64,000 nucleotides of DNA from an uncultured Bdellovibrionales bacterium (GTDB taxonomy: Bacteria; Bdellovibrionota_C; UBA2361; J135). Below, piece after piece: positions 248 through 56,694 of the stretch (its first letter is position 1; each line of letters starts with the position of its first letter). The translations under genes were made by a program, and so were the position numbers. Below the pieces are notes generated by a model. The model saw only the letters and a program-made list of their open reading frames with translations, searched no databases and was not told the DNA's origin. The stretch spans positions 8,976-72,975 of the forward strand of contig CAZFXN010000001.1 in assembly GCA_964523015.1 (NCBI GenBank), given 5' to 3'.

Positions 248-1686
248 AAAATCTTGTACTAGCAATATTTATATTTTTAGGCATAACAGAAAGTGCTAAA
301 GCGCTTCCATATGAGCTAATGCCTCTAGAGCAGGAGATGAAAGACATCACTATCTCTGAGCTAGAGCAGAGCTCAAGTTATTCTAAGGGTAGTACTGTTG
401 GTACGCAAAATCGTGCAATCTCTCCCCGACTAAGACCAACCGAAAGTGCCTCCGGATATCTTCAACATGATGAGACTGATTTCAAATCTGAAACGTATCT
501 TCCATTTGAATACTTTGGACGTATTAACAAGGACAAAGTAGAGGAAGGATATTTAAACAGTATCGCTACACTTCAGGGCAGAACAGAGAATGCCCTTAAT
601 AGTGCTGGGGGCACCTGGTATCAGATGCTTATGTTTCAAGAGCCTACGTTAGCTGTTAGTGGAGCTGCCTTATTAAACATTAGTAGTAGCAAGATAGCTG
701 AGTATCAAAGAGATAGAGCAAACGAAATTACATTTAACGCGGCTCGTCCAGAAATTGCAAAAGAGATCATGGATGATTATGAACACTGCATGGCTTCTAA
801 CATAACGGGAAGTACCGCTAGCTCATTAATAGGTGGTTATCTGTTTGGGGGTGGTGGATTCGGAGGCAGTGTTGAGATGGCCAGAGAGATCTGTGAATCA
901 CAAGTATCAACTATTCAGTTTCTAGCTGCTAGAGGAGCAATGGGAATGAACGGTTGTGAGTGGCTATCAATAGTTATGTGGGGTCATCTCTCAATGGAGA
1001 TTCCGTTTAGAATGAGAGCACAATTTGGAGATGATGAAATCTGTCCAGCTGTTCATGAGACCTCTCCTGGCGGCCAATATATTGCTTATCAATTCTCAGC
1101 TGTTCCGCCGTCTTTTTCAACACGCCAAGTTTGGTACGAAGAGTATTCTAAAAGTGTATTAGATCTGCAGTATATATTGGAGCAAGCTTCAACAGATAAT
1201 GGAGGATACCTTTTAACGCCGTATGACCTGGCGACTATTAATATCCGCCCAGGTTTAAAAGCAACTCAGGCTTTAGTATCTGCAATTGAACAAGGGTTTG
1301 ATCCATTAAGAGATCGTCCAGAATTAGTCAACTGGTGGGCCAAAGAGAAAGCTAATGCACTTATCGATACTACCTGCAGTGAAGCACGAATTGCAGTTGA
1401 TGAATCTGCCTCCAGTCAAGCGACGGAAAGAGAGCGAAGACGATGGAAAGATAGAGTCAATGCTGTTTGTAGTACCTTATCAGAGCTTAAAAAGGAGATG
1501 GCTGAAATTACAAAGAATCAGGTGGTCTTTGAAAAGATCTTAACTGAAGGTGATAAGGCAGCTAAGAAATTCTCTCAAAGTGCTTTGGCGCAGGCCCGAT
1601 CAAATAAGCAAAGAGGAAGCGGTTCGCAAGGTACTTGGGCATTGGATGGTGGAATGTCACCAAAGAATGGAGCAAACGACTTTTAA
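244..1686 (+). CDS. traH: TraH-like F-type T4SS periplasmic protein
   Basis: 480 aa with N-terminal signal peptide (MKNLVLAIFIFLGITESAKA) and Gly-rich loop GGGGFGG. Size and position immediately upstream of a TraG-like gene match the F-plasmid traH-traG pair. Assignment by architecture and synteny, not alignment. Confidence 0.45.
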   Translation: MKNLVLAIFIFLGITESAKALPYELMPLEQEMKDITISELEQSSSYSKGSTVGTQNRAISPRLRPTESASGYLQHDETDFKSETYLPFEYFGRINKDKVEEGYLNSIATLQGRTENALNSAGGTWYQMLMFQEPTLAVSGAALLNISSSKIAEYQRDRANEITFNAARPEIAKEIMDDYEHCMASNITGSTASSLIGGYLFGGGGFGGSVEMAREICESQVSTIQFLAARGAMGMNGCEWLSIVMWGHLSMEIPFRMRAQFGDDEICPAVHETSPGGQYIAYQFSAVPPSFSTRQVWYEEYSKSVLDLQYILEQASTDNGGYLLTPYDLATINIRPGLKATQALVSAIEQGFDPLRDRPELVNWWAKEKANALIDTTCSEARIAVDESASSQATERERRRWKDRVNAVCSTLSELKKEMAEITKNQVVFEKILTEGDKAAKKFSQSALAQARSNKQRGSGSQGTWALDGGMSPKNGANDF

Positions 1687-1705
1687 CGGAATTGGGATTT
1701 AATTT

Positions 1706-3820
1706 ATGGCAACCGGCTCTACTGCGACACTAGTCTCAGCAACCATGCAATTAAGTGGAGAATTCAGCCAAGCCCATATCTTGGATGCGGTGGTTAATTC
1801 TCCAATCGGCAATCTTGCGATCTTTATCTATATAATTTCAGCTATCGGATTTTTTATCAGCGTTGCCTTTTTTCAAAATTATAAAATGGGTATCTGGCTA
1901 GTATTTGGCCCTGCTCTCTGGGATATCTCGGCAAATACAAGAGCAGAACAGGTAAATTTAAATTGGATGTATGCTGGGACGGTAGTACAAGATCAGGATT
2001 GGTTAACTCAATTTAGTAACCAAAGTCTTACTGATGACCTCTCTCTTGATAAGGGTCCTGCAACATTATACGTACTATGGGACTCTGTTGTTAGCGGAAC
2101 TGTACAGAATCTAACCGGTTTACTAGCTAAGATTACAAACGATCCTGCAACCAGGCTTTTTGCCAAAACTAATATTCAGGAGGGAATGCTTGGATCTATG
2201 ATCCAGAGTCCTGAGATAAGAGAGGCTGTACGGATCGCTATGGGCCCAGATTGTACTCCAATGGTCCCTGTTAGTAAGGGAAATGAACCAAAAGAGTGGA
2301 ATTTTTTAGAGATTGATGAACTAGAAACAGCACTTGATAACAGATTAGTTAAGGGAGTTCCAGAATCTGTTGTTCGAAAGTTATGTGAATACTCGATGGT
2401 CTATGAGATCTGGCAGTATGGTTCAAATTTAGAATTTGATCAGATCGATACAGAGCCGTGTGTTGTCAATCCATGGGGAGCTATAGGAACCTTTTCCCTT
2501 GGAAACTCAGAGAAATCAAGTTGTCTAGAATTTTCACGAACTACTTGGCAGGCACTTCAGGTAAGCGCTGAATTAAGATTACGAAATCTATATAAATCGT
2601 CAGGAGCAAACTCTTCAGGTGTTAGCGCACTCGGCAGAGATATCTTACCACAGTGGTCACTTGATATGTTGGCACAAGATGACTCTTCGTTAAAAAAACT
2701 TGTGGCTAGCTACATGCTCAAAAATGAGATGGATGATCTTAATTTTTTAAATCCTTCTCGCTCACTATCTGATGGGGGGAAAACTGAATCAGAGCTGAAT
2801 AAACCAGTGGAAGCAATTGTAGGTTGGCTTGAGAGAGAATCAGCTCAGAGCCAAGCTGTATTTTTTGCAAAATCAGTTCCCTACTTACAAGGGGCACTTC
2901 TTTATACCTTAGCAATTGTATACCCCTTTATCTGCATTATTATGCTGATACCTGGATTTCATACTGCAATGATCACCTGGATGGGTGCTTGGGCTTGGGT
3001 TAAGAGCTGGGATATTATGCTTTACGTCATAAGTCTCCTCTCCGGCATTATGTCAGAAAACATTCTGCATAAAGGGATGCTTCATAATAATATCGTGCAG
3101 AATGAATACGTGGGTACTGATGGAAGTGTCTCAAGCTTTGCAGATAATGTAGTCAGCAGATTGGAGGATATTAATTTTCTACATCTCGCAGTTTATAAAG
3201 CATTTGATGACGTGGATCCAAAGTTCGTTGAAGGTATTATTAACTATATCGTTGCGCTTTCGACAATCTCGATCCCTGCTATTACTGGTATATTCTTTTT
3301 ATGGGGCAGAGCATCCTCTCTCAGCTTATTCACTGATGGCATGAAAAATAAAGCAATGGATGCAACGTCAAGAAGAGCTGCTCAACTTCAAGATCAGTGG
3401 TTAAGAGATATCGAGATCGGACGACAACAAGAAGTTCGAACATCAAGTGCTGTAGGTGCTGCTTGGGGATCAGGTATCGGATTTGCACTAGGAAACTTGC
3501 CTGGCGCAATGGTTGGTACTGCTCTTGGTGCTGTTGCTGGGGAGAAATTTGGTTCTGTTAGTGCCGGATATGACCGTGGGCCAGAAGCAGCTCTATACGG
3601 AGGACGTCCGATGGTTGTCTCCTCTGGTGACTTACTAGATCCGTGGGAGAGCATGACTACTGCAGCAGGAGCCATGGTAATCCAGAAACATTTACTTGAT
3701 GCAACCGGTCAAGCTGAGGCTGATCCAGTATCAACCTATATAAATGGCCCAGATAGGTTAAGGCTAAATCAGAACCTACTCGGAAATAGAAGAAACTTTA
3801 TCTGGGGCGGATCAAGATAG
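1706..3820 (+). CDS. traG: TraG-like polytopic membrane protein (VirB6-like N-domain) of F-type T4SS
   Basis: 704 aa with multiple hydrophobic helices in the first ~550 aa and a Gly-rich C-terminal segment (GAAWGSGIGFALGNLPGAMVGTALGAVAG). It follows the traH-like gene with a 19-nt gap. Confidence 0.45.
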   Translation: MATGSTATLVSATMQLSGEFSQAHILDAVVNSPIGNLAIFIYIISAIGFFISVAFFQNYKMGIWLVFGPALWDISANTRAEQVNLNWMYAGTVVQDQDWLTQFSNQSLTDDLSLDKGPATLYVLWDSVVSGTVQNLTGLLAKITNDPATRLFAKTNIQEGMLGSMIQSPEIREAVRIAMGPDCTPMVPVSKGNEPKEWNFLEIDELETALDNRLVKGVPESVVRKLCEYSMVYEIWQYGSNLEFDQIDTEPCVVNPWGAIGTFSLGNSEKSSCLEFSRTTWQALQVSAELRLRNLYKSSGANSSGVSALGRDILPQWSLDMLAQDDSSLKKLVASYMLKNEMDDLNFLNPSRSLSDGGKTESELNKPVEAIVGWLERESAQSQAVFFAKSVPYLQGALLYTLAIVYPFICIIMLIPGFHTAMITWMGAWAWVKSWDIMLYVISLLSGIMSENILHKGMLHNNIVQNEYVGTDGSVSSFADNVVSRLEDINFLHLAVYKAFDDVDPKFVEGIINYIVALSTISIPAITGIFFLWGRASSLSLFTDGMKNKAMDATSRRAAQLQDQWLRDIEIGRQQEVRTSSAVGAAWGSGIGFALGNLPGAMVGTALGAVAGEKFGSVSAGYDRGPEAALYGGRPMVVSSGDLLDPWESMTTAAGAMVIQKHLLDATGQAEADPVSTYINGPDRLRLNQNLLGNRRNFIWGGSR

Positions 3821-8596: not shown

Positions 8597-11351
8597 GTTA
8601 ACACGGGCTCGACTTTATAAAGATGAAGCTCTGTTTAATAAACTACTCCCTTTTGCCAGATATGATATCGAGCAAGGTGTGTTTGTACACGCCGATGCTT
8701 CATTATGGTTGATGTACGAGTTGGAGCCTCTCCTTATAACTGCCACCTCTGATGCCTCTGCTTATCAAACATGCTCTAGTATTCAAGAGCTCTTAGATTC
8801 ATTAGATGTTAGTATTAGTGTCCAGTTTAATTGGGTGGTAACGTTCGACATTGAAGGTCTACTTCAAAAGGCACTCGAGCAGTACCCAGTATCCGGCGTT
8901 GCTGGTTGGATGGCTCGTCGCTGGAACAGAATGATGAAAAAGGCAGCTCGTAGCTCTTTTATTCATCAACGACCTAGAAAAATGCGACTTATCCTTTCTT
9001 TTAGACATGATCCACCATGGAGCAAGGGAAATATATTTCAAGAGCTTAAGAGAGCTTTTTCTATCCTGATTAAAGGTAATGTTGGATTCTCTGCAGATCA
9101 AAGACGAGCAGAGTATCTAAACTACGCCAACAAATTTAAAGGAGAGATTGAGGGTAAAGTATCTCGACTAAGAGACCTTGGTTTCTATCCAAAAAAAGTT
9201 GATGGGCAAGCTTTAATTGATACACTCTATCCGATACTGAATCGACGAAGCGTTAAAGGTGGTAAGTTTAAAAAAGGGCGCACCTCCTCAATCCCTGTGC
9301 CAGTTTTTGATCCGCTTGATTTATTATCAAATCAACTCTCTGAAACTGCTGTTGAGCATCCGCAAAATGGTATTATCAAAAAAGATGGTAGAGTTTTTAG
9401 AACTGTCTCGATGGTAAAATCTCCTAATCAAGCTTTTCCTCTGATGATTGCTCCGCTTCAATCGGCGCCATATGAAAATATTATAAGTGTTACTTATTCA
9501 AAAGATCCGATGCAAGCTCAGATCAAAAAACTTGATACGCTTGATAGCACCCTTGGTCTTCGTGAATTTACTAGCATGGGTAGAGGTAATCAAAAGATTC
9601 AACATCAGATTAGATCTATTAGGGCCGCAAGAGAGAGCTTATATAATAACTCCACTCAAATTGTCCGATTAGGTATCCATCAAACATTTATCTGTCAAAA
9701 TGAACAGGAAGCTATCAGAGCAACCTCTGAGGCAATGGCAGCTTTTCCTCAATTAAATGGTGCTCGTGGCATGGTTCACGAAATTGCTGACCTTGGTGTA
9801 ATGATCAATTCATTACCGGGATGCTATGAGCCAGCACTTGATGGACGTGGATGGACATCTGTATTGCAATCTTCACGCGCAGTTAGAATGCTTCCTTTAT
9901 GGGGCAATTGGAAGGGCAGTAAAGGCTCACTCTTTCTCCTACCAAATCTTTGGAACCGTGAATTAGTAGGATTCGATCTATTCGACTCTAATATTGCACC
10001 TAACGTATTAATAAGCGGAGTATCTGGTGCTGGTAAGAGTTATCTCCTTAACTTTCTTCTGATAACTCTTAATAGAGGGCACTATTCAACTCTCGCAAAT
10101 GGAATGACTGTTGAACGTCCACCAATTACCTTCGTCTTTGACAAAGGAATGCCTAATCAACCGTGTGGATTTGAAAAGATTGCTCATCTATTTGGTGGAA
10201 GAATATACGAAGCTACCCCTTCTAAAGCACCAGCCATGAACTTCTTGGCTCGCTTAGGAGACTGCCCTCACGATAACACCAACGAAGATTTCAAAGATCT
10301 AGTGGATATCTGCTCTGACATAGTTGCAGATATGGCTTCTGAAAATAATCGTCCGTTATCACGACTTCAGGTAGGTGATATTATCACTGCTCTTTTAGAA
10401 GCCCATAGAATCTATAGAGCTGGTCCAATGAAGAGGCAGTTTATTTTAAGTGATGTTGTCGCAGTTCTCCGTGCTCCAAAGAGAGTCGATGAGGATGAGG
10501 CTACAGCTATGCGTCGTGTCGAGATCGCTCTTTTAATGTCTGAGTACTATGGAGAGGGTACATATGCTAGATTCTTTGATAGACCAGGAGCATTAAGACT
10601 AAAAGAAAGATTTATCGTGTTCGATCTTAAGGGATTAAGTAGAAATCCTGACCTACAAAGGGTATTTTTAAAGATCGCTATGCTCTGGGCTGACGAGGTC
10701 ATGAACGATCCAAAAGAGCTCGACTCGAGAAAGGTTCTTGTGTTCGACGAAGCTCATGATCTTATCGGTAAAACATCTTCAGGTGTTATCGAATCAGCTT
10801 TCAGACTTTATCGTAAGAGAAAAGGTATTGTTATTGCCGCTTCTCAATCTGGTGAAGATTTCTATGTTGGTGCTGGTGGACAGGCTATCGTACAAAACAG
10901 CGCGCATAAGATCTTTTTGAGACAAGATCCAAGTAAGTTTCATTTAACAGCAAAAGCGTTCAATCTAAATGAACAACAGAGTGATGTAATTATGCGTTTA
11001 CGTACTATTAAAGGTGTTGAATCTCAATTTTATCTTCTCTCAGATATCGGAGAAGCCGCCCTTGTTCTACCTCTTGAGCCGGCGTACTACTGGGTTAGTA
11101 CAAATAATGGTGACGACAATCAATTATTTCAATCAGTACTTCAGGAATGTAATGGTGATTTTGCAGCAGCACTTGAGAGAGTAAGTATTATAGCTCCAAG
11201 TGGCGCAAGTGCGTTTGCACAGTACAGAGCTGCTATGCAGCAGGCTCAAGAGCAATCTCGAAATGGCGAAAATTCCGTTTCAAAAACAATTAATACCGCT
11301 TTAGGTCAAAATACAGGTTCAAATTCTATTATAAAGGAGCAGCAAATATGA
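8577..11351 (+). CDS. traC: TraC/VirB4-family T4SS ATPase
   Basis: 924 aa with Walker A GVSGAGKSYLLNFLL and Walker B VLVFDEAHDL. The length fits F-type TraC. Confidence 0.85.
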   Translation: MNMSIDRLTRARLYKDEALFNKLLPFARYDIEQGVFVHADASLWLMYELEPLLITATSDASAYQTCSSIQELLDSLDVSISVQFNWVVTFDIEGLLQKALEQYPVSGVAGWMARRWNRMMKKAARSSFIHQRPRKMRLILSFRHDPPWSKGNIFQELKRAFSILIKGNVGFSADQRRAEYLNYANKFKGEIEGKVSRLRDLGFYPKKVDGQALIDTLYPILNRRSVKGGKFKKGRTSSIPVPVFDPLDLLSNQLSETAVEHPQNGIIKKDGRVFRTVSMVKSPNQAFPLMIAPLQSAPYENIISVTYSKDPMQAQIKKLDTLDSTLGLREFTSMGRGNQKIQHQIRSIRAARESLYNNSTQIVRLGIHQTFICQNEQEAIRATSEAMAAFPQLNGARGMVHEIADLGVMINSLPGCYEPALDGRGWTSVLQSSRAVRMLPLWGNWKGSKGSLFLLPNLWNRELVGFDLFDSNIAPNVLISGVSGAGKSYLLNFLLITLNRGHYSTLANGMTVERPPITFVFDKGMPNQPCGFEKIAHLFGGRIYEATPSKAPAMNFLARLGDCPHDNTNEDFKDLVDICSDIVADMASENNRPLSRLQVGDIITALLEAHRIYRAGPMKRQFILSDVVAVLRAPKRVDEDEATAMRRVEIALLMSEYYGEGTYARFFDRPGALRLKERFIVFDLKGLSRNPDLQRVFLKIAMLWADEVMNDPKELDSRKVLVFDEAHDLIGKTSSGVIESAFRLYRKRKGIVIAASQSGEDFYVGAGGQAIVQNSAHKIFLRQDPSKFHLTAKAFNLNEQQSDVIMRLRTIKGVESQFYLLSDIGEAALVLPLEPAYYWVSTNNGDDNQLFQSVLQECNGDFAAALERVSIIAPSGASAFAQYRAAMQQAQEQSRNGENSVSKTINTALGQNTGSNSIIKEQQI

Positions 11352-42344: not shown

Positions 42345-43853
42345 TTATTGTCGTGATTTTAAAAACGCTCTGGCATCTGCCACAAGTGAATCAGGAAAAT
42401 TTAAAGCGTATCCATGACCGACTCGCATCTTTGTAAATGGATCAGTCTCAATCTCTTCGGCACAATCAGAGATAATTTGTGAAGTAATTAGGTCGCTATT
42501 AGCACTGAGATACTCCTGATCATTTTTTAAATCTCCCTGCCAGGCTACTTCAAGTGAGTTATCGATATTAACAAACCAGCCCTTATGAATAGCTCTTACA
42601 AGTAGCTCTCTAGATGACATTGATAAGGCATCTGTATGTTTAAACCAACCAACATCCTGAAGGGCAACTTTACGAATAGCAAAATTCATCCCAGTAAATG
42701 GAGAAGAAAAAAGTTTATCAACTTGAACATGTCCGTCTGGGCCCTTTAATGATTCTTTAAGGGGACTCATTGAGCCACTTGGAATAATAATCGAAACTCG
42801 ATCTTCACGGAAAATTTTTATCGCTTCTAAAGCAAAATTTGAAGGAACAGTTGCCCCAACATGTAAAAAGGAGAGATAAAGGGAGCAAGAGGACTGTGCG
42901 CCAACATTCAGGGCTGCCCCAAAGGATCGTGTCAAACTTCTTACATACCTAAGTCGAGAACTGATTTTCCCAATCTCACCATCCTTTAAAGAGAGTAATT
43001 TGCGAAGCTCTTTGGCGACTTTTCTATCCTCAGAGTAATCAACAAGTAACACCTCAAAGTTTGTCATTGATTGCTGTGATAAATTCTCCAAAGTTTTCTT
43101 TAAAGCATCATCACAAGCATTAACCGGAACAATATAAGAGAATCCCCTTTCAACTATGTTAGCTGCGTGGGAATACCGATTAAAGATCCGAGACATCTCT
43201 GGCAGAAGCGGATCATTACCCTGACCGGTTTTATTATCTTCATACATTCGGTAATAAGAGAAAACTTTAGGAATCTGCTTTACGGTATGTCGTCCCCAAA
43301 CCCGCATCCATAGATCATAATCCATGCAGTAATAAAGCTCTTCATCAAGAAGCTTACCATCATGTCGACGAACCTCTTCAATTACTGATCTTCTAAAAAA
43401 TATCGAGGGTTGTGTAGGAATTGAGTAAGAGCACCAGTACTTCAGTAGATCATGCCAAGTTCTTGGAACGTTAACGACAGTGTAATCAACTTTTCCCGCG
43501 CGATCAGTAATCTGACACGCGCCAACAATCATCGAATGGATCTTTAGCTCTTCGGCCACCAATGGAAAAATATTCGGCTCATACCAATCATCAGAATTAA
43601 GCCAAGTGACGATATCACCAGTCGACTTTGCAAAACCCTTATTTAAGGCATCGGTTTGGCCGTTATCTGGCTCACTTGTCCAGATCAGATGTTTGTATGA
43701 TTTAAGGATCTCAACGGTATTATCGGTCGATCCTCCATCAACAACTATATGCTCAACATTTGGATAATCTTGGGCCAGGACTGATTCAATCGTATCTCGA
43801 ATAAATTCCCCCTGATTAAATGAGGGAGTGATAATCGAGATCTTCGACATCAT
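42345..43853 (-). CDS. two-domain family-2 glycosyltransferase
   Basis: ISIITPSFNQGEFIRDTIESVLAQDYPNVEHIVVDGGSTDNT. Second GT-like half FEVLLVDYSEDR. Confidence 0.7.
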   Translation of the reverse strand: MMSKISIITPSFNQGEFIRDTIESVLAQDYPNVEHIVVDGGSTDNTVEILKSYKHLIWTSEPDNGQTDALNKGFAKSTGDIVTWLNSDDWYEPNIFPLVAEELKIHSMIVGACQITDRAGKVDYTVVNVPRTWHDLLKYWCSYSIPTQPSIFFRRSVIEEVRRHDGKLLDEELYYCMDYDLWMRVWGRHTVKQIPKVFSYYRMYEDNKTGQGNDPLLPEMSRIFNRYSHAANIVERGFSYIVPVNACDDALKKTLENLSQQSMTNFEVLLVDYSEDRKVAKELRKLLSLKDGEIGKISSRLRYVRSLTRSFGAALNVGAQSSCSLYLSFLHVGATVPSNFALEAIKIFREDRVSIIIPSGSMSPLKESLKGPDGHVQVDKLFSSPFTGMNFAIRKVALQDVGWFKHTDALSMSSRELLVRAIHKGWFVNIDNSLEVAWQGDLKNDQEYLSANSDLITSQIISDCAEEIETDPFTKMRVGHGYALNFPDSLVADARAFLKSRQ

Positions 43854-44626
43854 TACGCTGCAGTCTCCTGAACTACTTCTTCGCTTTCTTCAGAGTTTTC
43901 TTCAGCACCTTCATCATTGGCCATTTCAGACTCAACAACTTCAGGCCACAAACAAACTATCTGCTCATCGGCTTTAAAATAAACCCCTAATTCATCGCCA
44001 TATCGCTGAAATCCGTACCGAACAGCACCGCCGTTATCACGTAGAAGATCTCTACAAGCTTTCTCCTCTCCCTTAAACCAGAGCTCCTGGTATCTTAAAA
44101 GAAGATCGCTATCATCAAGTAACTCTCGATCGATCATAGCTAAGCATCGTGTATCGACAAAGATTGTACCAAGCAACTCAGTACTCTCACGAGTCAACTC
44201 CTGTCCCTCTGTTCTACTTCCCTCAGGATGCACAACGATAGAGAACTCAAAAGGATCCCGTTCGATTCTATAAAGACCTGGTTCTACTTTAACTACACAG
44301 CCACCAAATTCCTGAACCAAGCTATCTCGGTCCTCTGGTGCAGCATCAACACTTTTGATAACAGCATCTACAAACTGTGGGTTGGCCAACATAAATTGGT
44401 CGATAATTATAAGCTGTCCACTCTCAACTGAGATTCTCTCTCGCTTATTACCACTTTGAGAAGCTTCTCTTGGATTACGAGAACGTCCACCACGGTTAGA
44501 CCTACCGTATCCACCAGTGCGACGTCCGCCGCCACCGCTTCTTAATCGATAAGAGGAACCGCCTCTACTACTACTACTACCACCACCACTACGTCCTCCT
44601 CGGCCTCTTGAATTTCGATAATTCAT
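43853..44626 (-). CDS. protein with N-terminal RGG/Gly-Arg-Ser-rich low-complexity region and acidic C-terminal tail
   Basis: The first 65 aa are RGRGGRSGGGSSSSRGGSSYRLRSGGGGRRTGGYGRSNRGGRSRNPRE. The C-terminus is EGAEENSEESEEVVQETAA. The stop overlaps the GT2 start (TAATG). Confidence 0.55.
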   Translation of the reverse strand: MNYRNSRGRGGRSGGGSSSSRGGSSYRLRSGGGGRRTGGYGRSNRGGRSRNPREASQSGNKRERISVESGQLIIIDQFMLANPQFVDAVIKSVDAAPEDRDSLVQEFGGCVVKVEPGLYRIERDPFEFSIVVHPEGSRTEGQELTRESTELLGTIFVDTRCLAMIDRELLDDSDLLLRYQELWFKGEEKACRDLLRDNGGAVRYGFQRYGDELGVYFKADEQIVCLWPEVVESEMANDEGAEENSEESEEVVQETAA

Positions 44627-44834
44627 ACTTCAACTCTATGTAACTAATAACAAAAATAATAAGCACCCTGCTCGGGCACCAAACAAACTCAAAGAAGCCT
44701 TGTATCATAAATTAGTACTAATATGCCAATTAGCCACTATGTAATTGCTTAAGCACTATCAAAGTCAGGTCGATAATTCATTATAGGTTAGATTTATACA
44801 ATCCGTAGTATTTTCAGTAGGTTATTTACAAAAA

Positions 44835-45338
44835 ATGAATCAGACATGTATCATAAATTCTGAAGGGGTCTGCTTTGATCCTGATGATATCACCCTTCTA
44901 GGAGTTTATTCTGATGAGTTATCTCTTTTTAGAGCAAAAAGCGGATGGACCAAGGTTTTAGAGTCCAACTTTATGCTTGAAGATACGCATGACTTTTCAA
45001 TTGAGATAGTAAAAGACTATGAGTCCCTTAGATTTCGACTAGCTTGCAGATTTAACACTGCTTGCGGACGGTATGCATTTTGGCGAATTACTAACTATCA
45101 GGCTCCAGAAGCTCAATATGAGATAGAAACTGCTCATATTCCTAACTCTAGCTCGCGACAACTTGATTTAATTTCAGCACCTGATCTACTTCCGCTTTAT
45201 AGTACACCGTTAGTAGTTACAGGACTCTCTGAGCAGCGTAGTAGTTCAGTACTTGCAAAGGTACTCTCTCAGATCAGTAAATTTCGTAGTAGGCTTCTTA
45301 GTGGGCTTCGTAGAAAGCTTGATAGTAAGTTCTCCTAA
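44835..45338 (+). CDS. hypothetical protein
   Basis: 167-aa ORF. No motif. Confidence 0.4.
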   Translation: MNQTCIINSEGVCFDPDDITLLGVYSDELSLFRAKSGWTKVLESNFMLEDTHDFSIEIVKDYESLRFRLACRFNTACGRYAFWRITNYQAPEAQYEIETAHIPNSSSRQLDLISAPDLLPLYSTPLVVTGLSEQRSSSVLAKVLSQISKFRSRLLSGLRRKLDSKFS

Positions 45339-45478
45339 AAATACCTACATCGTATCTACGGTTCTTTACCATTCTTTATACCACCATTGTATCTTCAATC
45401 TGATTAAGCAACTTGTTGAAGATTCTATCTAATAACAATAGGTGGGTCTGTTGATAACGATCTTTTCATTCGAATAAA

Positions 45479-46408
45479 TTGAGTAAGCTTATGCCACGCC
45501 TAAATAAAGATGGTAAATTTATAATCTCTGCCAGTGAAGTTGGCAGCTATACAGTATGTCCAGAGAGTTGGCGTTTACGCAGCGTGTTAGCTGTGAACAG
45601 AGAAGATACCGATCGCTCAAAAAAAGGGATGGTTAAGCACGATGAATGGACTGTTACCTATGACGAGCATCTCTTTTTAGCTCGTAGTTCTAGAATTGTT
45701 TTAGCCTTACTTATCTTAGCAATTGCTGCATTTCTTTTAATTAGTGAACACTCGATTGTTTTACCTTAGGTTTTTATGAATGAATCCATCAAAGAATTCT
45801 CGATCGAAACTCTAAGTCAGATCGTCCTTCTTGACACTGATTTTATCTTACTCGCAGTTTTAGTGGCTGTAGTTGTTATTCTCTACGATAGTTTTTATTA
45901 CGTTTCCCGAAAGAAGCTAAAAGAGACCGGAATTCAACCAAAAGCTGTTGCGCATTCAATAGACGGCAGTAAGAATCTACCGATTAAAAATTATATCTCA
46001 GAGATTCAAGGTTTAGCTGGACGTCCTGATGCATTAATTATTGAAAATGGGTTTATAATTCCAGTAGAGAGAAAACCATTAGCACGCAAATTACGGGATA
46101 GGTACGTGGCTCAACTCTTAGTCTACATGCGATTAATCGAAGAGTTTGAGGGGAAGAAACCACCGTACGGTTACTTAATCCTTGGCGGTAATTGTCGGCG
46201 AATTAAAATAATGAATACCCCAAAACGTCAAATATGGGTTCAAGGTATTATAGATGAGATGCGTGCTATTTTAGCTGGCCAAGAATCCCGACCAACACCA
46301 GAAGCACGAAAATGCTCAAAGTGCGATGTTAAAAACCACTGCAAATTTGATGCTTCAAAAAGTAGTGATATGGCCGTACAGATAAATGCGCAGATCAATA
46401 AGAGATAG
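45479..46408 (+). pseudogene. Cas4/DUF83-like PD-(D/E)xK nuclease interrupted by in-frame TAG, with internal TM hairpin
   Basis: ORFs 45479..45769 and 45776..46408 are in the same frame, separated by TAG-GTT-TTT. The N-terminal part has a YxxCP-like motif (GSYTVCPESWRLRSV). The C-terminal part has GRPDALI, IPVERKP (ExK), QLLVYMRLIEE (QxxxY) and CSKCDVKNHC. Hydrophobic helices flank the stop. Confidence 0.4.
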
Positions 46409-46474
46409 ATAGTGTTGTGGTAGGTGGAAATCCCTTGCGGTGAACTCTCAGGGCTCTCTTTCAAAATCACAGAA

Positions 46475-46939
46475 TCATAGCTCTTTCTCTAAGATAATTC
46501 CATGGTGCTTCTCTCTAATTTTTTTGTAAACGCCCGTAATATCAAACCCTTCACGGATGTTCAGAAGTAACATGCCACGATACTTGTTCTTGGTTTGGGT
46601 TCTAATAAATTTAAATCCTTTCGCCTTAGCAATCTCGTGTTGTCTTTTCAAAAGGGATCGAGCAATGCCTTTTCTGCGAAACCCCTCCATGACTCCACCG
46701 TTCCAACTGTAGAAATACTCATTGTCCGAGTGATACTCAAAGCCAATCTTATAGGCGCATGGTTTGCCCTCGAAATATCCGACCAATATGGTCAGATTGG
46801 GGCGAGTTTCAAGCTCTCTCTTTAGAATTTCTCGACTGAGAGGCTCTTCGAAGATCTTAGCCTCAAGTTCAATGAGCAGGTTCAGGACCGACTCGGTCAA
46901 TTCAGTAAACTCTTTAATTTCAAATTTATCCATAAGCAA
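46475..46939 (-). CDS. GNAT family N-acetyltransferase
   Basis: Motif A FRRKGIARSLLKRQHEIAKAKGFKFI. Confidence 0.7.
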   Translation of the reverse strand: MLMDKFEIKEFTELTESVLNLLIELEAKIFEEPLSREILKRELETRPNLTILVGYFEGKPCAYKIGFEYHSDNEYFYSWNGGVMEGFRRKGIARSLLKRQHEIAKAKGFKFIRTQTKNKYRGMLLLNIREGFDITGVYKKIREKHHGIILEKEL

Positions 46940-52528: not shown

Positions 52529-52695
52529 CCATTATCTCCGCTTAGTGATCAGATCATAAATTTTTTCTATACATTTTTGCTATCCATTTTTTCTATGCAT
52601 TTTTTCTTTGATAATGGTTTCTCTTCTTGATACTCTTTCATTTCACTAAAGAATTAAGCTAAAAAATCAAGATTGAACAATTCGAAAGAGGAATC

Positions 52696-55582: not shown

Positions 55583-55656
55583 ATTAATTACTTTGCTACA
55601 TTACTCAACTACACTACCCTACTACATTACCCTACTACATTACTCCACCATCCAAA

Positions 55657-56694
55657 TTACTCCACCATCCAACTCCAGGCGTGACCTCTGCGAGTTACCT
55701 GGCGAATTTCAGCGCGAGCTGTGCGAATCTGTTCAATGCTTGAGTAACCCAGATCTTCCCAAAGCTGATCTGGAATATCAGATAAATTACCACCTCGGAT
55801 CTGCTCTAACATAAGCAATGCGGTACGCCAGCGTTTCTGATCATCAGTTAACTCATCAACTGAGATAAGATCCTCTCCTGCTACGGCCATAATTCCATAA
55901 GCGCCATCTCTCCCGCATCCACTAGCGATAAGCATCATGGCACTAACTTGAAGAGGCTCTGAACGATAAACTTCCCGACCAATTCTTTGTATTGATCCAC
56001 CTTCAGCAATTTTATCAATCGTATCTTTTGCTTGTTCAAGGGTACCGGTCGCTATTTGAATTGCTAATCCTACACGCCCAGCAAAGCCAGCTAACATACC
56101 TCTCCCTGGTCCAAACCCTTTTAAGTGTCTCCCTAATGAGTACCCTATTCGGGTCCTTAAAAGAGCCTCTTCCAAAATTGGGTGCCAAATTCTCTCAAAC
56201 TGTTTAGTTTTTAACTTTCGACCAATGGCATGAATAATTGCACAGGCACAAAATACATCTGGGGGTAATACTCTAACAGCCTCTTGTGGGTCAGTGATCT
56301 CTGCCCCTCTCTCAATAATATCTGGATCCTGCGCAGTAAGTATTAATAACTTTCTAAGCGCAAAAACCATCCCAAGATCAAATGATTTAATTTTACCTGC
56401 CCTACCAAGGGTGTGATTTACAATTCGCCAGATATACCAAGGAACTGGCTTAAACTGCTCAACAGTTAATCTTGAATTCTTCCAATTCTGTTTATGATCA
56501 TGACTTGAGATATAACTAGCAGCTTTCTCTTCAGCTTCTTCAAGTTCCTTTCTAATATTCTTTTCAATCTCTGTTTCTTCATCGATTGGGCTAACAGAGG
56601 AGGTATAAGTCACTTCAAACGCAGTTTTTTTAGGCCTCTCCTTTTTCGGATCTTTTTTTGGATTTTTTGATTGGGATTTTGTCTGCTCTACCAT
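55657..56694 (-). CDS. hypothetical protein (weak HDOD-like pattern)
   Basis: 345-aa ORF with a Lys-rich N-terminus. CACAIIHAIGRKL weakly resembles the HDOD core. Confidence 0.35.
   Translation of the reverse strand: MVEQTKSQSKNPKKDPKKERPKKTAFEVTYTSSVSPIDEETEIEKNIRKELEEAEEKAASYISSHDHKQNWKNSRLTVEQFKPVPWYIWRIVNHTLGRAGKIKSFDLGMVFALRKLLILTAQDPDIIERGAEITDPQEAVRVLPPDVFCACAIIHAIGRKLKTKQFERIWHPILEEALLRTRIGYSLGRHLKGFGPGRGMLAGFAGRVGLAIQIATGTLEQAKDTIDKIAEGGSIQRIGREVYRSEPLQVSAMMLIASGCGRDGAYGIMAVAGEDLISVDELTDDQKRWRTALLMLEQIRGGNLSDIPDQLWEDLGYSSIEQIRTARAEIRQVTRRGHAWSWMVE

Follow-up and report, generated by a model that had tools for sequence, protein, structure and literature searches.

A solo Cas4-family nuclease of Bdellovibrionota, probably encoded by two adjacent genes that are parted within an inserted membrane hairpin

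We analysed a stretch of 64,000 nucleotides (nt), hereafter the window, from an uncultured Bdellovibrionales bacterium (positions 8,976 to 72,975 of the forward strand of contig CAZFXN010000001.1, GenBank assembly GCA_964523015.1). Two adjacent open reading frames (ORFs) of the window, ORF1 and ORF2, were presented in a preliminary description of the sequence as a Cas4/DUF83-like nuclease split by a single in-frame TAG. Cas4-family nucleases are known as soluble enzymes of CRISPR adaptation, or as the products of 'solo' genes. We propose that ORF1 and ORF2 are probably the separately translated halves of a membrane-anchored, CRISPR-independent solo Cas4-family iron-sulfur (Fe-S) nuclease, which would reassemble in the membrane. 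The break between the two genes falls within the loop of a two-helix membrane hairpin, itself inserted between a segment with conserved Cys and His residues and the catalytic core. The stop codon at the junction has an ordinary explanation, gene fission, and the two ORFs are in frame in the window by happenstance, this being one of three possible frames.

The region forms a single frame on the forward strand from 45479 to 46408, and its sole interruption is the TAG at 45767-45769. ORF1 (45491..45769) runs from an ATG at 45491 to this TAG and comprises the predicted cytoplasmic N-terminal Cas4 segment, a first transmembrane (TM) helix, and a tail of seven residues. A TTG at 45479 offers an alternative start upstream of this ATG but is probably not used. 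Since every ortholog begins at the equivalent Met (MPR or MAR), ORF1 is taken to start at the ATG and to encode 92 amino acids (aa). ORF2 (45776..46408, 210 aa) begins with an ATG at 45776 in the same frame and ends with a TAG at 46406-46408. It comprises a short acidic N-terminal tail, a second TM helix, a basic linker, the Cas4 catalytic core, and three C-terminal Cys. The spacer GTTTTT (45770-45775) parts the stop of ORF1 from the ATG of ORF2, so that the arrangement of TAG plus 6 nt first reported is present as claimed, and the complete junction (45767..45778, forward strand) sits in the loop of the helical hairpin. The TAG codon ends 18 of the 51 window ORFs of at least 150 aa, which agrees with the earlier statement that it is an ordinary stop and that recoding is unlikely.

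Since the data come from metagenome assemblies, a false stop made by a sequencing or assembly error is conceivable. We assign almost no probability to it: the junction is identical in assemblies of three other samples, and orthologs have stops at the same site. Contigs of these samples (SRR6448219, JGI 3300020186, and SRR6448210) reproduce positions 45491-46408 exactly. They stem from two Logan assemblies and one JGI metagenome, and two of them match the window over their full length. The 92-aa and 210-aa genes were called by independent gene callers on all three.

Both ORFs display motifs of the Cas4 family. ORF1 contains YTVC23PESW, and ORF2 contains GRPD85, VE98RK100, Q113LLVY117, and C180SKC183DVKNHC189. 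The initial Cas4/DUF83 assignment therefore holds, as all the motifs it quoted are present and ORF2 matches both Pfam Cas_Cas4 (E 3.4e-8; 34.2 bits, cut-off 22.7) and PADLOC Cas4 (E 4.2e-15). The Pfam match spans only positions 49-159 of the 160 in the profile, indicating that ORF2 is without the N-terminal third of Cas4. ORF1 alone gave marginal matches to the N-terminus of PDDEXK_1 (E 0.13) and of PADLOC Cas4 (E 0.049). The score against the TIGR00372 equivalog, which represents CRISPR-associated Cas4 proper, was 50.5 bits, under its cut-off of 65.

A profile of the whole family matched Cas4 8d3l_I, from a type I-C adaptation complex, in two pieces (E 5.9e-4). The N-part aligned to residues 13-53, with Cys on Cys and G..LH on GQHLH, and the core aligned to residues 103-207. 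Cas4 8d3l_I was also the best PDB match of a profile of the N-part only, where the match was weak (E 0.11). These alignments predict Cys23 (codon 45557..45559, forward strand, as for the other features of ORF1 and ORF2) as the first Fe-S ligand, on the N-terminal Cys of 8d3l_I, and His50 of the G..xH motif (codon 45638..45640) as an active-site metal ligand, on its GQHLH. The catalytic motifs GRPD85, E98-x-K100, and Q113xxxY117 (46028..46126) align to the 8d3l_I core, and C180-x2-C183-x5-C189 (46313..46342) would provide three C-terminal Fe-S ligands.

These residues are conserved across related loci, both those in which two genes encode the N-part and the C-part (split) and those in which one gene encodes both (fused). 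In an alignment of 76 N-parts, Cys23 is present in all loci, 44 split and 32 fused, Trp27 is invariant alongside it, and His50 is found in 42 of the 44 split loci and in every fused one. Cys23 is likewise invariant in a broad alignment of N-parts (A4). Among 71 loci, split and fused, D85, E98, K100, C180, C183, and C189 are conserved without exception (100%), while Q113 is kept in 69 and Y117 in 68.

An Fe-S cluster held by four Cys is a feature of most Cas4 proteins (PMC13621843), and the four Cys have been described in all members of the family (PMC5704561). The same four-Cys module occurs here, although its Cys are spread over two polypeptides. According to PMC13621843, the metal ion of the Cas4 protein SSO0001 is held by His62 and acidic residues of the D/ExK motifs. 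By homology to Cas4, ORF1 would therefore contribute one ligand each to the cluster and to the metal, and the remaining ligands would come from ORF2. The N-terminal product was at first regarded as a possible membrane anchor. It does have a TM helix, but it is not merely an anchor: because it carries the first Fe-S Cys and the conserved His, the nuclease is most likely a two-chain enzyme. By its motifs, profile score, and fold, the locus is a Cas4-family member in the solo-Cas4 sense.

The break is shared by many relatives. We searched a collection of 5.8 billion proteins with the concatenated ORF1 and ORF2 and obtained 549 matches, which fell into two length classes. Among the best 120, 88 were proteins of about 213 aa (55-72% identity) that matched the ORF2 part only, and 32 were single chains of about 284 aa (42-46% identity) that covered 89-96% of the concatenation and contained both hydrophobic helices. 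An ORF1 homolog was found directly upstream in each of the first three loci of the ORF2 type, and its frame differs in one of them. We surveyed one genome per GTDB species and retrieved 72 loci, nearly all from metagenome-assembled genomes (MAGs) labelled Bdellovibrionota, Bdellovibrionales, Oligoflexia, or 'Deltaproteobacteria'. Loci and family representatives were classed with hidden Markov models (HMMs) of the N-part and C-part, after regular expressions proved too strict. With these models the two parts were detected side by side in 78 of 78 loci, at N-part E values of 1e-11 to 1e-43. The non-redundant set of 74 loci, in which the window and locus L001 are included, is made up of 42 split and 32 fused loci. 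An uninterrupted version with the TM insertion, which had been suggested as a check on the orthologs, thus exists in 32 of 74 loci, with both helices present. In L001, the gene caller skipped the 90-aa N-part gene and placed a 63-aa ORF on the opposite strand (2683..2874).

The junctions of the 42 split loci are diverse. Their N-parts end with TAA in 15 cases, TAG in 14, and TGA in 13, and the C-part starts in frame 0 relative to the N-part in nine, in frame +1 in 10, and in frame +2 in 23. The two genes overlap in 13 loci, seven times in the ATGA manner. Gaps measure 0-12 nt in 22 loci and 13-26 nt in five, with outliers of 52 and 152 nt. This is the geometry of translationally coupled adjacent genes, unlike that of a conserved readthrough site or of decay.

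These data bear directly on programmed readthrough or recoding of the TAG, by which a single fused protein would be the functional product. The in-frame arrangement in the window, with its two-codon linker, fits such a mechanism, and fused variants occur in nature, including one (P0216) that is nested among split forms and looks like a lost stop. Nevertheless, in-frame junctions are not enriched (nine of 42, where chance would give 14), the junctions make use of all three stop codons and overlap in 13 cases, and TAG serves as an ordinary stop in the long ORFs of the window. In addition, no conserved junction context was visible by eye in the sequences inspected, in which no search for readthrough signals was made. 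We therefore regard readthrough as highly unlikely.

Even less credence can be given to a fresh pseudogene, that is, a recent nonsense mutation in a single gene of 309 codons at a decaying locus. Only TAG plus 6 nt lies between the in-frame ORFs of the window, and single-chain homologs exist, both as expected after such a mutation. However, the same break site is found in 42 non-redundant loci that are 45-70% identical and saturated at synonymous sites, where the proportion of differences (pS) is about 0.8. All functional residues are kept on two halves that are both constrained, ORF2 and its orthologs have an ATG of their own, and a point nonsense mutation could not have produced the 33 of 42 junctions at which the genes are out of frame or overlap. 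The proportion of nonsynonymous differences (pN) between orthologs is 0.25-0.46 for ORF1 and 0.22-0.36 for ORF2. Against the saturated pS, the ORF1 values (pN/pS 0.33-0.58) indicate that this gene is under purifying selection. Of the three origins initially entertained, two proteins derived from one ancestor is thus the one that stands, while the 42-locus split, the use of three stops, and the 33 junctions out of frame speak against a fresh pseudogene and programmed readthrough. The orthologs are separate genes with independent starts, which removes the picture of a single gene with a lesion and leaves the PD-(D/E)xK fold intact.

The hydrophobic hairpin reported around the stop is confirmed, with one helix on each side. 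TM helix 1 comprises residues ~66-85 of ORF1 (45686..45745, forward strand), with a 19-residue Kyte-Doolittle maximum of 2.57 at residues 67-85, and TM helix 2 comprises residues ~16-37 of ORF2 (45821..45886, forward strand), with a maximum of 2.73 at residues 17-35. Over 40 split loci, the median hydrophobicity of TM1 in a 17-residue window is 2.71. We modelled the fused homolog P0030 with AlphaFold2 from an alignment of 54 sequences and obtained a mean predicted local distance difference test score of 84.7 and a predicted template modelling score of 0.72. The model consists of a short N-terminal strand and helices, a helix at 41-85 that corresponds to TM1, a loop at 86-91, a helix at 92-132, and an alpha/beta core at 147-263. 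Its comparison with Cas4 in three dimensions aligned 178 residues, consistent with a Cas4 fold in the predicted structure. This is more than the 143 residues past the hairpin (147-289), so part of the N-terminal segment or of the hairpin must have been aligned too. Residues 1-89 of the ORF1 profile align to residues 1-90 of fused P0030 (hhalign probability 99.9%, E 4.7e-31), which places the gene break at the hairpin tip, within its loop.

The charges around TM2 provide insight into topology. In ORF2, the N-terminal tail has a net charge of -4, and the 18 residues past TM2 (41-58) one of +4. Over the 12 residues after TM2, the mean net charge is +2.2 in split and +3.5 in fused forms, and the hairpin loop is acidic in split forms (mean charge -1.2). 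The charges on the TM2 side, together with the loading of Fe-S clusters in the cytoplasm, suggest that both soluble pieces are cytoplasmic and that the loop lies outside.

We postulate that ORF1 would insert with its N-terminus in and its C-terminus out through TM1, and that ORF2 would insert with its N-terminus out and its C-terminus in through TM2. The tight spacing or overlap of the two genes may couple their translation. TM1 would then pack on TM2, and the cytoplasmic pieces would rebuild one Cas4 domain, in which the Fe-S cluster would be held by Cys23 of ORF1 and Cys180, Cys183, and Cys189 of ORF2. The metal site would be formed by His50 of ORF1 and Asp85 and Glu98 of ORF2, with Lys100 of the same motif. 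Given this shared cluster and metal site, each half would be inactive alone.

Alternatively, ORF2 could be a self-sufficient nuclease with an N-terminal anchor, and ORF1 an unrelated or vestigial small membrane protein with no remaining part in catalysis. The D/ExK and QxxxY motifs and three of the four Cys are all on ORF2, many C-only family members exist in protein catalogues, and activity has been reported for a solo-Cas4 mutant that lacks its cluster (cited in PMC13621843). This alternative is unlikely, as an N-part gene adjoins in 46 of 46 split loci and in two distant lineages, the N-part Cys and His are conserved as described above, ORF1 is under purifying selection, and the spacing of ORF1 and ORF2 is like that of translationally coupled subunits.

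Some observations weigh against the two-chain nuclease that we favour. The association of the chains, the shared cluster, and the shared active site are deduced from homology to Cas4 proteins that are single chains, and the proposed ligand roles of Cys23 and His50 depend on the weak 8d3l_I alignments of the N-part and of the whole profile. There is almost no charge bias ahead of TM1, and the orientation is therefore deduced chiefly from TM2 and from the requirement that the Fe-S cluster be assembled in the cytoplasm. Low-level readthrough of the in-frame TAG may yield a functional fused protein. Finally, the reported activity of solo-Cas4 without its cluster means that ORF2 alone might keep some activity.

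The family extends well beyond the loci surveyed. We searched 1.84 billion cluster representatives exhaustively with a profile and retrieved 914 proteins at E<=1e-3; 305 of these scored <=1e-10 and 70 scored <=1e-30. Among the best 150 family representatives, 82 were fused, 49 were C-only (mostly with one helix), and four were N-only. The number of helices between the Cys/His segment and the core in the 82 single-chain members is two in 54, four in 12, and seven to nine in eight. Distant members with four or seven to nine hydrophobic helices instead of two include P0298, P0301, P0335, P0345, and P0352. One fused member of 243 aa (P0356) comes from a Euryarchaeota MAG. The two distant C-only members examined (about 175 aa) both have a gene of 87-88 aa with the Cys/His motif directly upstream, and one of these two genes ends in a clear membrane helix.

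In a crude neighbour-joining tree of the loci, without branch support, there is one transition, with 31 fused Bdellovibrionota loci forming one clade among split lineages. When the family representatives are added, fused and split forms are interleaved. Judging from these sequences, the hairpin loop appears to have broken and re-joined several times in the family. The single-chain member P0216, which lies within a split clade, has a longer loop ('...LQDK-MTQEV...') that looks like a former stop/start junction turned sense. Another protein, P0224 (246 aa), joins the N-terminus of an Arg/Gly-rich neighbour, described below, to the C-terminal half of the nuclease. It is probably a chimeric assembly, because its two source genes are normally divergent.

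The genomic context is chromosomal. No CRISPR-like array was detected in the window, and no cas gene among the neighbours. The flanking genes in the window encode, by Pfam, a GT2 glycosyltransferase, a GNAT acetyltransferase, and an AAA/DUF4143 ATPase. Genes resembling fmt and def, as judged by eye from the sequences without a family search, lie downstream in the fused clade. Synteny is conserved over at least 60 loci, and the locus lies outside CRISPR-cas and mobile elements, as defines solo-Cas4. A comparison with PHROG yielded one weak match, to a Cas4-like phage family. Intergenic tandem repeats in the window, at 52556..52607 and 55587..55672, consist of AT-rich units of 13-17 nt in 4-4.5 copies and are not CRISPR-like.

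Two neighbours accompany the nuclease in split and fused lineages alike. The first, UP (167 aa; 44835..45338, forward strand), is possibly in the same operon as the nuclease. In 66 of 76 loci, it directly precedes the nuclease and shares its strand, at a median gap of 105 nt. A PDB profile search with UP gave no match, and its resemblance to YidD is a sub-threshold Pfam/NCBIfam match (E 0.03) that we judged to be chance. The second is a divergent gene for an Arg/Gly-rich protein of 257 aa (43853..44626, reverse strand), found upstream of UP in 61 of 76 loci and on the strand opposite to the UP and nuclease genes in 59. At the N-terminus of its product, about 55 residues are rich in Arg and Gly, ahead of a very highly conserved globular part (SGNxRERI..ESG.LV.IDQFMLANPQF ... 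DTRCLAM.DRELLDD ... CRDLLRDNGGAVRYGF). This protein had no match in Pfam, NCBIfam, PADLOC, or PHROG, and against the PDB it returned only ribosomal protein L15, through low-complexity matches that were set aside. Promoter-like sites in a promoter and terminator scan of 44500-46600 were fewer than in shuffled sequences. In locus L081, dprA (DNA_processg_A; 1149..1862, reverse strand) is found on the opposite strand some 360 nt upstream of a distant split pair (2223..3040). This single instance hints only weakly at a connection with DNA uptake.

Comparison with known systems sets the locus apart. CRISPR-associated Cas4 (PF01930/COG1468; 8D3L, 7MI4, 4IC1, and 4R5Q) shares with it the D/ExK/QxxxY motifs, the N-terminal Cys, the three C-terminal Cys, and the His of the G..xH motif. 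In contrast to CRISPR-associated Cas4, the ORF1/ORF2 locus has no cas1, cas2, or CRISPR array nearby, its product has about 70 residues with two membrane helices between the His motif and the core, and it is encoded by two genes and scores below the TIGR00372 cut-off. The iron-staple nuclease domains of AddB, Dna2, AdnAB, and Exo5 are soluble, and those of AddB, Dna2, and AdnAB are fused to helicase-like modules, whereas the staple of ORF1 and ORF2 would join two separate membrane-anchored chains. EndA and NucA are membrane-anchored DNA-entry nucleases of competent bacteria, which face outward and have folds unrelated to Cas4. The ORF1/ORF2 nuclease is predicted to be membrane-tethered as they are, but, unlike them, to face the cytoplasm.

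Another parallel is solo-Cas4. According to Hudaiberdiev et al. 2017 (PMC5704561), the evolution of solo-cas4 genes is mainly vertical. As in that group, ORF1 and ORF2 are outside CRISPR loci, and the conservation of their neighbours fits vertical inheritance; the membrane hairpin and the gene fission go beyond what has been described there. In the text of PMC5704561 the words 'transmembrane' and 'split' are absent, and 'membrane' occurs once, in a gene-name legend. A literature search combining Cas4 with transmembrane, membrane-anchored, and DUF83 returned no paper on inserted helices or two-gene encoding. Family members are labelled 'Dna2/Cas4 domain-containing protein', 'Cas4', or 'hypothetical protein' by NCBI and JGI.

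As for function, we speculate that the assembled enzyme is tethered to the inner face of the cytoplasmic membrane, where it would act as a nuclease on DNA ends or single strands. The context, chromosomal and vertically inherited, suggests, again speculatively, a role in housekeeping, repair, or the processing of entering DNA rather than that of a mobile defence gene. A bolder and rather doubtful possibility is that the nuclease pair, UP, and the Arg/Gly-rich protein make up an unrecognised membrane-associated DNA-processing module, in which an obligate two-chain Cas4-like nuclease, its Fe-S cluster and active site shared between two single-pass membrane proteins, would act on DNA located at or crossing the cytoplasmic membrane. 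If so, activity could depend on assembly in the membrane, and the DNA targets would be those of uptake, of conjugative or phage entry, or membrane-attached chromosome ends.

These findings also have implications for annotation. The 92-aa partner gene is sometimes left uncalled, the 210-aa gene carries the label of a complete Cas4, and a split that is in frame, like that of the window, can pass for a pseudogene. Collectively, the data describe a large uncharacterised branch of the Cas4 family, with 305 clusters (50% identity, E<=1e-10) and two to nine inserted helices in the members examined. As these helices interrupt the nuclease fold, they would anchor the enzyme in the membrane. A natural split enzyme with its Fe-S and metal ligands on different polypeptides would offer a system for the assembly of an Fe-S 'staple' across subunits, and the family and the arrangement of cluster and active site that it implies are worth experiment.
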